A DNA stretch of 64,000 bases from Escherichia coli (GTDB taxonomy: Bacteria; Pseudomonadota; Gammaproteobacteria; Enterobacterales; Enterobacteriaceae), in assembly GCF_044324785.1 (NCBI RefSeq), contig NZ_CP172127.1; one strand, written 5' to 3'. Position 1 is the first letter of the stretch, and each line of letters begins with the position of its first letter. The position numbers are program-made. Shown one piece after another: positions 53,801 to 56,800 of this stretch.

Positions 53801-56800
53801 ACATCCTGAATAATCAGTTCAAAGAGATGCTTAGTTAACGGTATTATTAAATTTTCCTCTTCTGCAGCGCGGATAAAAACTACCGGAGATATATTTTTAC
53901 CATCTTCGCGTTGCCAGCGCATTAACGCTTCAACCCCCAGACACGCTTTGGTTGTCGTGTCGCACACTGGTTGATAATGCACAGAAAATTCTCCGGATGA
54001 CATTCCTGTTTTAATTTCTTCGGCCAGCGACATTTTCCGTGACATCCAGTGCTGCCATAAGAAATAGAGAATAAAAGAAAGAATAATAGATAACGGCAAA
54101 ATATAAAACACATTGCTAATGATATAGGGATATAACGAAATCATCGGCGTAGTAACTGTAAGACGAGCCTGACTGATCGCAGAATTAAAATCTTTTTTTA
54201 ACATATACAACCTGTCATTATTATTTACACCACTAATAATTGCAGGCCCTTCAGTAAAGCGAAGAGAAAATGAATCATCATTCTCATCATCAAGAACATC
54301 CATTAGATCATAGATATATCGTGACTCTACAATACTAAAAGCTGTCATATCATTCCCTATTGGCATAAGGAACACTATTGCTGTTTTACCTGGCACAAAA
54401 CTTGTACCGCTAATTGATACTATACGTGATTCTTTATTTTTATTGTGAAAGCTCGTACCGTAAACATCGTTAACATTCATTTTTTTGAAACCGCTAACTG
54501 AAGAACATATTTGGAAATTATTTTCTATAAGACCCGTTGTTCGAACATAGGGAGTCAATGCTCCGTTAGCAATCAATTGTTCCAGGATATCTTTGCAGGG
54601 TTTCATCACCAGAATAGAAGTAAGCTTTGTCGTATGTTTGACAATTTGCGTAACATTATCAAGCTGTTTTAACAAAATACCGGCGGTAATTGTCGTATCT
54701 CGATTCATTTGAAATATTGACATAGCAAACGATAGTAACACCCCCAGAATGCCTGGTATTATAATGAGTACAAACATTTTTTTGTTGAATACCATACATG
54801 TTTCCCCACGCATCAGGGTGATGCAACCTAAGAAATTATAGTACAATTGCCAGTAAAAGCGGGTGATAGCAGACTGATCAATGATAAGCATTTAAGATCA
54901 TATAGTACTATGATATTTCTGAAAATTGTTACCCATGTCTGCGAATAGCTATTTAGCGCTTACCAAAATCACCCGCTAAAATGCCGCTTTATGGTGACTC
55001 ACAAAAATTCACCACATCCCTCACAACCACCTTATTACGCCCGGTCTCTTTCGCCTCGTATAGTGCGTTATCAGCCAGTCGATAGATCTCATTCGGGTTT
55101 AACGCATTTTCCTGAGTCACAACAGCGCCAATACTAATCGTCACTTTTTGTGGTATGGCGTATTCAGGATTATCACCAGTTAAACGCTCAACATTTTCCC
55201 GAATCCTTTCCGCTAAAGCTTTCGCACGTTCAGTATCGATGTCCGTCAGCAAGACGCCAAACTCTTCGCCGCCGACGCGTGCTAAAAGGTCATCTGGTCG
55301 TGGGGAGAAAATGCACCAGCTCCCCAGTTGAAAGATAATCCGTCTATCTCCATTATCATTCCCTGTTTTAATGAGGAGAAAAACGTTGAGGAAACCATAC
55401 ACGCCGCTTTAGCACAGCGTTATGATAACATTGAAGTTATTGCCGTAAATGACGGTTCAACAGACAAAACCCGTGCCATCCTGGATCGCATGGCTGCACA
55501 AATTCCCCACCTGCGGGTCATTCATCTGGCGCAAAACCAGGGGAAAGCCATTGCGCTTAAAACCGGAGCTGCCGCGGCGAAAAGTGAATATCTGGTGTGC
55601 ATTGATGGCGATGCGTTATTAGACCGCGATGCGGCGGCATATATTGTGGAACCGATGTTGTACAACCCGCGTGTGGGTGCCGTAACCGGTAATCCTCGTA
55701 TTCGAACACGTTCTACCCTGGTGGGTAAAATTCAGGTTGGCGAGTATTCCTCAATTATTGGTTTGATCAAGCGAACCCAGCGTATCTATGGAAACGTATT
55801 TACCGTTTCTGGTGTTATTGCCGCATTTCGTCGCAGCGCCCTGGCAGAAGTGGGTTACTGGAGTGACGATATGATCACCGAAGATATTGATATTAGCTGG
55901 AAGCTGCAGTTGAATCAGTGGACGATTTTTTACGAGCCACGGGCGCTGTGCTGGATATTAATGCCTGAAACGTTAAAAGGGCTGTGGAAACAGCGCCTGC
56001 GCTGGGCTCAGGGCGGTGCAGAAGTATTCCTCAAAAATATGACAAGGCTATGGCGCAAAGAAAACTTTCGAATGTGGCCACTGTTTTTTGAATACTGTCT
56101 GACGACAATATGGGCCTTTACCTGCCTGGTCGGTTTCATTATTTACGCAGTCCAACTTGCAGGTGTACCGTTAAATATTGAATTGACACATATCGCTGCG
56201 ACACATACTGCCGGAATATTATTGTGTACGTTATGTTTACTGCAATTTATTGTCAGCCTGATGATCGAGAATCGCTATGAGCATAATCTGACTTCATCGC
56301 TTTTCTGGATTATTTGGTTCCCGGTTATTTTCTGGATGCTGAGCCTGGCAACGACATTGGTATCATTTACACGAGTCATGTTGATGCCTAAAAAGCAACG
56401 CGCCCGTTGGGTAAGTCCCGATCGCGGGATTCTGAGAGGTTAATATGAACAATTTAATTATTACGACCCGACAATCGCCAGTACGTTTAATGGTTGATTA
56501 TGTTGCCACAACCATCTTATGGACATTATTTGCTTTGTTCATATTCTTATTCGCCATGGATCTGCTGACGGGTTATTACTGGCAAAGCGAGGCCAGAAGC
56601 CGACTTCAGTTCTATTTTTTGCTGGCAGTGGCGAATGCCGTCGTGTTAATTGTCTGGGCGCTGTACAATAAGCTGCGTTTTCAAAAACAGCAGCATCATG
56701 CAGCCTACCAATATACGCCGCAAGAATATGCAGAGAGCTTAGCAATACCTGATGAGCTCTATCAGCAACTACAAAAAAGCCACAGGATGAGCGTACACTT

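Follow-up and report, generated by a model that had tools for sequence, protein, structure and literature searches.

A deletion junction at an 8-bp direct repeat joins remnants of dgcT and pgaC in Escherichia coli

In intact Escherichia coli loci, the diguanylate cyclase gene dgcT (ycdT) and the pgaABCD operon are separated by a divergent intergenic region. In the stretch of DNA analyzed here (64 kb, all of it from an E. coli chromosome; below, the window), the 3′ end of dgcT instead abuts the interior of pgaC. Is this arrangement a genuine feature of the lineage, how might it have arisen, and what does it leave of the capacity to make PNAG?

Position of the breakpoint

The junction lies in a stretch that begins with a wHTH regulator (51862 to 52683, plus strand) and a YqeJ/FidL-like gene (52688 to 53179, plus strand). 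These are followed by pdeT (vmpA), which encodes a CSS-motif/EAL c-di-GMP phosphodiesterase, is intact (53281 to 54891, minus strand), and sits directly downstream of the dgcT 3′ remnant (54989 to 55301, minus strand). In EDL933, pdeT/vmpA is found directly downstream of ycdT (Richter et al. 2014, PMC4287979). Across the junction are the pgaC remnant (codons 62 to 441 plus the stop; 55301 to 56443, plus strand), full-length pgaD (56445 to 56858, plus strand), phoH (56908 to 57972, minus strand), and efeB/efeO/efeU (58295 to 61596, minus strand). Every feature named in the first-pass annotation was found where it had been placed.

The window was aligned to the intact loci of 2017.04.02CC (L003), BL21 (L004), XL1-Blue (L002), and MEW (L005), the last being the closest strain with a complete pdeT-dgcT-pgaABCD locus. 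By blastn, homology to dgcT spans 54978 to 55301 and homology to pgaC runs from 55294 on, confirming the proposed deletion that joins ycdT to pgaC and removes pgaA and pgaB. The flanks match dgcT and pgaC from other E. coli at 98.5 to 100% identity, which rules out a chance resemblance; at that nucleotide identity, the GGDEF fragment is dgcT and not a naturally short gene. The breakpoint lies inside the 8-bp overlap (CTGGTCGT) at 55294 to 55301, in agreement with the earlier estimate of 55295 to 55303.

Base-by-base alignment to the intact references also bore out the suggestion that microhomology might be found here, as an 8-bp direct repeat straddles the breakpoint. In intact genomes, it reads CTGG(T/C)CGT in dgcT and CTGGCCGT in pgaC; its context is CATCTGG(T/C)CGT followed by ATGC on the dgcT side and CCACTGGCCGT followed by GGGG on the pgaC side, and the window reads CATCTGGTCGTGGGG. 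The match is 8/8 (CTGGCCGT) in the dgcT alleles of MEW, 06-00048, SCU-316, and Res13 and 7/8 in those of K-12, BL21, and O157:H7. Because position 55298 carries the dgcT-type T, the crossover in the window haplotype must fall within CGT at 55299 to 55301. These three are the only perfectly matching crossover bases that a T-type dgcT allele offers, and by our own calculation a 3-bp match would arise by chance at ∼5% of random junctions. The pair used is 1 of 148 repeats of at least 8 bp shared between dgcT and pgaABCD, 37 of which are longer. On either side, the window is collinear with the intact references, and it keeps one copy of the repeat. Comparison with these references revealed no IS element, IS end, target-site duplication, or extra base at 55294 to 55301; no repeat or structure other than the 8-bp repeat was seen at the junction, and Rfam returned no RNA family there.

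Lost genes and remaining fragments

The deleted interval measures 6259 bp against 2017.04.02CC and 6263 bp against MEW (∼6.26 kb). It comprises 1046 nt of dgcT, the whole 590-bp divergent dgcT-pgaA intergenic region, pgaA (2424 nt), pgaB (2019 nt), and 184 nt of pgaC, so that both references yield the content that had been expected from K-12 gene order, from the dgcT 5′ part through to the pgaC 5′ end. With the intergenic region went the pgaA promoter and 5′ leader, and both native promoters are deleted. Any read-through into pdeT from the dgcT promoter is gone as well. The reported absence of pgaA and pgaB was upheld: tblastn with PgaA and PgaB returned no match across the 64-kb window, and the junction-sharing strain N3 has a single place matching pgaC, pgaD, and dgcT and thus no second operon.

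What remains of dgcT, as defined by blastn and tblastn against intact dgcT, Pfam, and translation, is 313 nt that encode residues ∼349 to 452 of 452 and the stop codon. Intact DgcT has a MASE4 domain at residues 41 to 274 and a GGDEF domain at 282 to 439 (Pfam). The remnant opens precisely with the RPDD I-site, five residues ahead of the GGEEF motif, and has neither promoter nor start codon nor MASE4 sensor domain. It had been described as half of a domain and of a gene; the truncation is real, but the remnant keeps ∼58% of the GGDEF domain (C-terminal, ∼349 to 439), with both motifs, and 77% of dgcT is deleted. Retention of GGEEF and the RxxD I-site does not imply that a fragment without the rest of the domain would be active. 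ORF scanning and translation showed that the remnant forms the end of a 137-aa ORF with a GTG start (54989 to 55402, minus strand), in which 34 codons antisense to pgaC precede 103 codons of the DgcT C terminus. This ORF is a spurious chimera made by the junction and, since it requires the junction, serves as an exact marker for it. Some public records call the chimeric ORF a "diguanylate cyclase."

The extent of the pgaC remnant was established by tblastn, a frame check, and the hydropathy of intact PgaC. The gene is truncated at its 5′ end as first described, but by 61 codons (184 nt) and not by ∼67, and the frame resumes at codon 62. PgaC residues 60 to 441 match at 99.5% identity, with two amino acid differences from reference proteins. 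The remnant still encodes the GT-2 catalytic domain and the C-terminal membrane helices, and both N-terminal hydrophobic segments fall within the 61 lost residues. In the window haplotype the reading frame is open; it has neither a start codon nor a ribosome-binding site nor the operon promoter. Five codons before the junction there is a TAA in frame (55283 to 55285), and the first usable in-frame start is a TTG at 55328 (codon 71), which is not preceded by a Shine-Dalgarno sequence and opens a PgaC-like ORF of 371 aa (55328 to 56443, plus strand). Downstream, PgaD is complete (137 aa) and 100% identical by tblastn to PgaD of intact MEW; its operon promoter is gone. A promoter scan found no plus-strand promoter-like site upstream of the pgaC remnant, and the number of promoter-like matches overall, 3 versus 1.4 ± 1.0 expected, is at chance level. 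The pgaC remnant itself contains a weak promoter-like match on the plus strand, at 55328 to 55356.

Spread of the junction and fate of the remnants

Among 5426 complete RefSeq E. coli genomes, N3 is the sole strain that spans the junction; it is also the best match to the window in that set, at 99.1 to 99.3% identity. PGAP annotates both genes in N3 as pseudogenes ([quoted passage not shown]). Exact-protein look-ups in a large assembly collection placed the 137-aa chimera on 209 contigs (213 blocks) and the 371-aa PgaC remnant on 268 contigs, and about ten more full-length variants of the chimera exist. Three loci (L006, L008, and L009) are 99.98 to 99.99% identical to the window over 9.5 to 12.4 kb. 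The junction k-mers read GGTCATCTGG[TC]CGTGGGGAGAAAA; the junction 31-mer had zero matches in GTDB species representatives and JGI metagenome contigs, an outcome that is uninformative as to distribution. Because it is shared by N3 and >200 public assemblies, the deletion is a genuine lineage-level feature.

We consider it very probable that the junction is a repeat-mediated loss-of-function scar that has left relics and a PNAG-negative genotype. Deletions between short direct repeats (microhomology) are known in E. coli as classic RecA-independent slippage deletions. The window resembles them: intact genomes have a short direct repeat at either end of the interval that was lost, and a single copy is left here; nothing about the case is unusual, and the repeat used is not the longest available. 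Judged from the junction itself, a RecA-independent deletion of ∼6.26 kb would have occurred between the repeat copy in the GGDEF-coding part of dgcT and the one at pgaC codons 59 to 62, with replication slippage or illegitimate recombination at microhomology as the likely route. The predicted outcome is a cell without the PgaA porin, the PgaB deacetylase, and the DgcT cyclase, in which PgaC would lack its membrane anchor, start codon, and promoter, and DgcT activity is presumably lost. The pgaC remnant and pgaD would be untranscribed, unexpressed relics, and pdeT would stay intact. All four pga genes are reportedly needed for PGA-dependent biofilm. With pgaA and pgaB removed and pgaC beheaded, the PNAG machinery at this locus appears dead, and no PNAG should be made or exported from it.

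Relatives with the same junction show what has become of such remnants. In L014 to L016, the pgaC remnant has suffered 9-bp and 87-bp deletions, L015 has a further 1-bp deletion there, and pgaD of L019 is missing 1 bp. Substitutions found only in deletion haplotypes comprise 23 nonsynonymous versus 30 synonymous changes overall and 11 versus 6 on the youngest branches, whereas differences between intact alleles are almost all synonymous. As read from these alignments, the decay pattern is one of relaxed selection, and the ORFs of the window haplotype are merely not broken yet. Together with the deleted native promoters and the missing start and Shine-Dalgarno sequence of the pgaC remnant, this decay supports the first-pass description of promoterless relics. 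Purifying selection on the pgaC remnant and pgaD was also considered, as the window and N3 differ mostly by synonymous changes, and was rejected: these differences are polymorphisms shared with intact alleles, which indicates recombination in the flanks and not selection.

The alternatives to a repeat-mediated scar concern the assembly, the agent of the deletion, and the remnants themselves. For an assembly or scaffolding artefact hiding an intact locus there is only the general possibility that attaches to any single sequence, and the same junction occurs in the independently finished genome N3, in >200 independent public assemblies, where the contigs that carry it range from 50 kb to >1 Mb, and in several sequence backgrounds; we regard an artefact as extremely improbable. 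A somewhat better case can be made for an IS1-type adjacent deletion whose IS was later lost to leave a clean junction, given that independent IS1-mediated deletions are known at the same locus: ycdU-IS1-pgaD in L011, dgcT (438 nt)-IS1-pgaC (1044 nt) in L012, and dgcT (621 nt)-IS1-pgaB tail in L013. However, the breakpoints of all three differ from that of the window and the IS is retained, whereas the window junction has no IS end, target-site duplication, or extra base and falls on a short direct repeat. A clean IS loss that left exactly one repeat copy would be a superfluous extra step, and an IS origin is therefore very unlikely.

About equally unlikely, in our estimate, is that the remnants are not relics and that a PgaC′-PgaD pair or the 137-aa GGEEF chimera is expressed with a new function, e.g., c-di-GMP binding at the I-site. 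Both pgaC′ (380 codons) and pgaD are open in the window, and their products match functional alleles at 99.5% and 100% identity, respectively; RPDD and GGEEF are preserved in the chimeric ORF, and a minus-strand promoter-like site lies upstream of it at 55449 to 55422. Yet such matches occur no more often than by chance, pgaC′ lacks both a start codon and a ribosome-binding site, and by Pfam boundaries the GGDEF fragment is without its N-terminal, substrate-binding half. Same-junction haplotypes carry frameshifts and internal deletions in pgaC′/pgaD and a raised nonsynonymous share, and the differences among haplotypes, mostly shared with intact alleles, again point to flank recombination.

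Instability of the locus and origins of the shared junction

Loss at this locus is common in the species. Among the 5426 complete E. coli genomes, pgaAB is present at ≥80% coverage in 4262 and wholly absent from ∼1060; ∼20% are without pgaAB. Other lesions include an internal stop in pgaA of 06-00048 and an IS5 in pgaA of XL1-Blue. Two IS1-bearing candidates in which dgcT and pgaC fragments lie near each other, H84 and H85, were rejected as sharers of the junction, their breakpoints being different. Goldstone et al. (2016, PMC4951805) found pgaABCD-ycdT missing from 10 to 20% of phylogroup A strains, with pgaD kept more often than pgaA, and termed the locus "unstable and prone to attrition." The window fits this pattern as a partial loss with pgaD kept; their survey scored gene presence and absence only, and neither this breakpoint nor its 8-bp repeat nor the pdeT-linked backgrounds are described in it. 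In enteroaggregative E. coli 55989, an IS1 and a frameshift affect ycdT-pga, and the IS1 was suggested to increase pga expression (Richter et al. 2014, PMC4287979). The IS1 lesions of 55989, USMARC-51688, 200088, and 30859_5#96 resemble the window in their two targets, the gene for the diguanylate cyclase and either the pga operon or its promoter, and in the truncated genes that are left; they differ in having IS1 at the junction and other breakpoints, whereas the deletion in the window is clean and repeat mediated and destroys the operon. In Salmonella, loss of pgaABCD has been argued to be adaptive, with the operon acting as an "antivirulence" trait (Echeverz et al. 2017, PMC5464674). This, too, is a loss of PGA/PNAG capacity in an enteric lineage, and it supplies a published rationale for host-favored loss; it concerns the whole operon at the genus level and was tested experimentally, whereas the scar in the window is a partial loss seen within one species. 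Our literature search found no paper describing this breakpoint. The scar is an ordinary pseudogenizing deletion. Deletions of this kind, and losses at this locus, are already on record, the pseudogenes are already flagged in a RefSeq genome, and no new system or mechanism is revealed.

The only mildly novel aspect is that the junction is shared by diverged backgrounds. The same dgcT′-′pgaC junction occurs in at least three haplotype groups whose flanks form no clade. Group A (the window, L007, and N3) has T at both 55283 and 55298 and private changes at 55280 (T), 55426 (T), and 55810 (T). Group B (L014 to L016) has the same two bases and many private changes. Group C (L017 and L019) has A at 55283 and C at 55298, matching the intact dgcT allele of the MEW/SCU-316 type. 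In the pdeT flank, group C differs by 4.4 to 5.3% from groups A and B and by 2.1 to 3.0% from intact O157, SCU-316, and Res13, and group A differs by 0.3 to 0.5% from intact MEW. Each group is thus nearest a different intact strain, and the SNP 18 bp from the junction tracks the natural dgcT allele types. A single event could explain the difference at 55298, as this base is the mismatch within the repeat, but not the one at 55283, 18 bp away; for the junction to have arisen only once, either one particular point change or recombination tracts with an end at the border of heterology would be required. Chance re-use of the repeat pair is itself unlikely (<∼1% per event), considering that it is 1 of 148 repeats and that 37 are longer. 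A tentative reading, which we consider possible but rather doubtful, is that the junction allele was spread by homologous recombination or that the repeat pair was re-used, either of which would suggest positive selection for loss of DgcT and PNAG in pdeT-carrying lineages. If this were true, the scar would represent a pathoadaptive or "antivirulence" loss of DgcT together with PNAG.

The overall importance of the finding is modest. The junction is a clean epidemiological marker that can be followed by PCR or by k-mers, and it exposes an annotation error, in that a 137-aa junction artefact has been deposited publicly as a "diguanylate cyclase." The Pga machinery is acted on by c-di-GMP (Richter et al. 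2014, PMC4287979). As predicted from its sequence, the scar genotypes this strain and >200 related public isolates as PNAG negative and DgcT negative with PdeT kept, and it may therefore bear on predictions of biofilm and c-di-GMP phenotypes and on vaccines or antibodies that target PNAG.

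Chimeric reading frame at the junction

The junction that fuses the dgcT and pgaC remnants creates a 137-aa chimeric ORF (window 54989-55402, minus strand), to which public protein databases give the name "diguanylate cyclase" or "GGDEF domain-containing protein" (e.g., WP_077779182.1, WP_322147050.1, and WP_250145264.1). This label is an annotation artefact; in strain N3 (L001), a complete E. coli genome with the same junction, PGAP instead labels the region a pseudogene.

Genomic surroundings of the deletion

A large island (window 21078-54977) lies downstream of the tRNA-Ser gene serX. 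It holds ycdU, a lipid-type cluster (ACP/ketoacyl-synthase) with an ABC transporter, an SDR gene, an ShlB/FhaC transporter together with a two-partner-secretion hemagglutinin of 1270 aa (38420-42232, minus strand), and a chaperone-usher fimbrial operon (43.6-50.2 kb). Its 51.8-55.0-kb end, which comprises a wHTH regulator, a YqeJ/FidL-like gene, and pdeT, has matches in only ∼415 of 5426 complete genomes, a count that refers to this end alone. The position of pdeT (53281-54891, minus strand; a 536-aa ORF, or 504 aa from the PGAP-style start) downstream of ycdT is the same in EDL933 as in the window.

Although the deletion is common to the window and N3, pdeT is intact in the former and frameshifted in the latter; the same contrast is seen for clsC and the fimbrial usher, both open in the window and frameshifted in N3. 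Between lpxL and mdtG, the window carries an IS3-family element with two ORFs of 240 and 176 aa (1686-3043, minus strand). The same intergenic region is occupied in N3 by a frameshifted IS1397, which does not align with the window's element.

Rfam searches gave a full-length match to Ysr251, a Yersinia antisense sRNA, at 56913-57106 on the plus strand (191.8 bits versus a gathering score of 100), antisense to the phoH 3' end, as well as ES056 upstream of csgD (15386-15477) and ES036 (5249-5291).

Recurrent lesions and shared junction

Only ∼79% of complete E. coli genomes have intact pgaAB. Three different, independent IS1-mediated deletions affect dgcT/pga in other E. coli genomes (L011, L012, and L013), and the same locus bears independent lesions in XL1-Blue (L002), where pgaA is interrupted by IS5, and in strain 06-00048, where pgaA has an internal stop. 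In BL21(DE3) (L004 2026-3795), a truncated yeaR and then yoaG/yeaQ/dgcP follow dgcT in place of IS3-ycdU, which suggests that the region bordering the 3' end of dgcT has been rearranged in that strain.

A comparison of L014-L019, the loci used for haplotype analysis, with window 54978-58150 shows that three diverged haplotype groups carry exactly the same deletion junction. The flanks of these groups formed no clade, and left-flank distances between them reach up to 5.3%. The junction may have had a single origin and been spread by recombination, or it may have arisen more than once.
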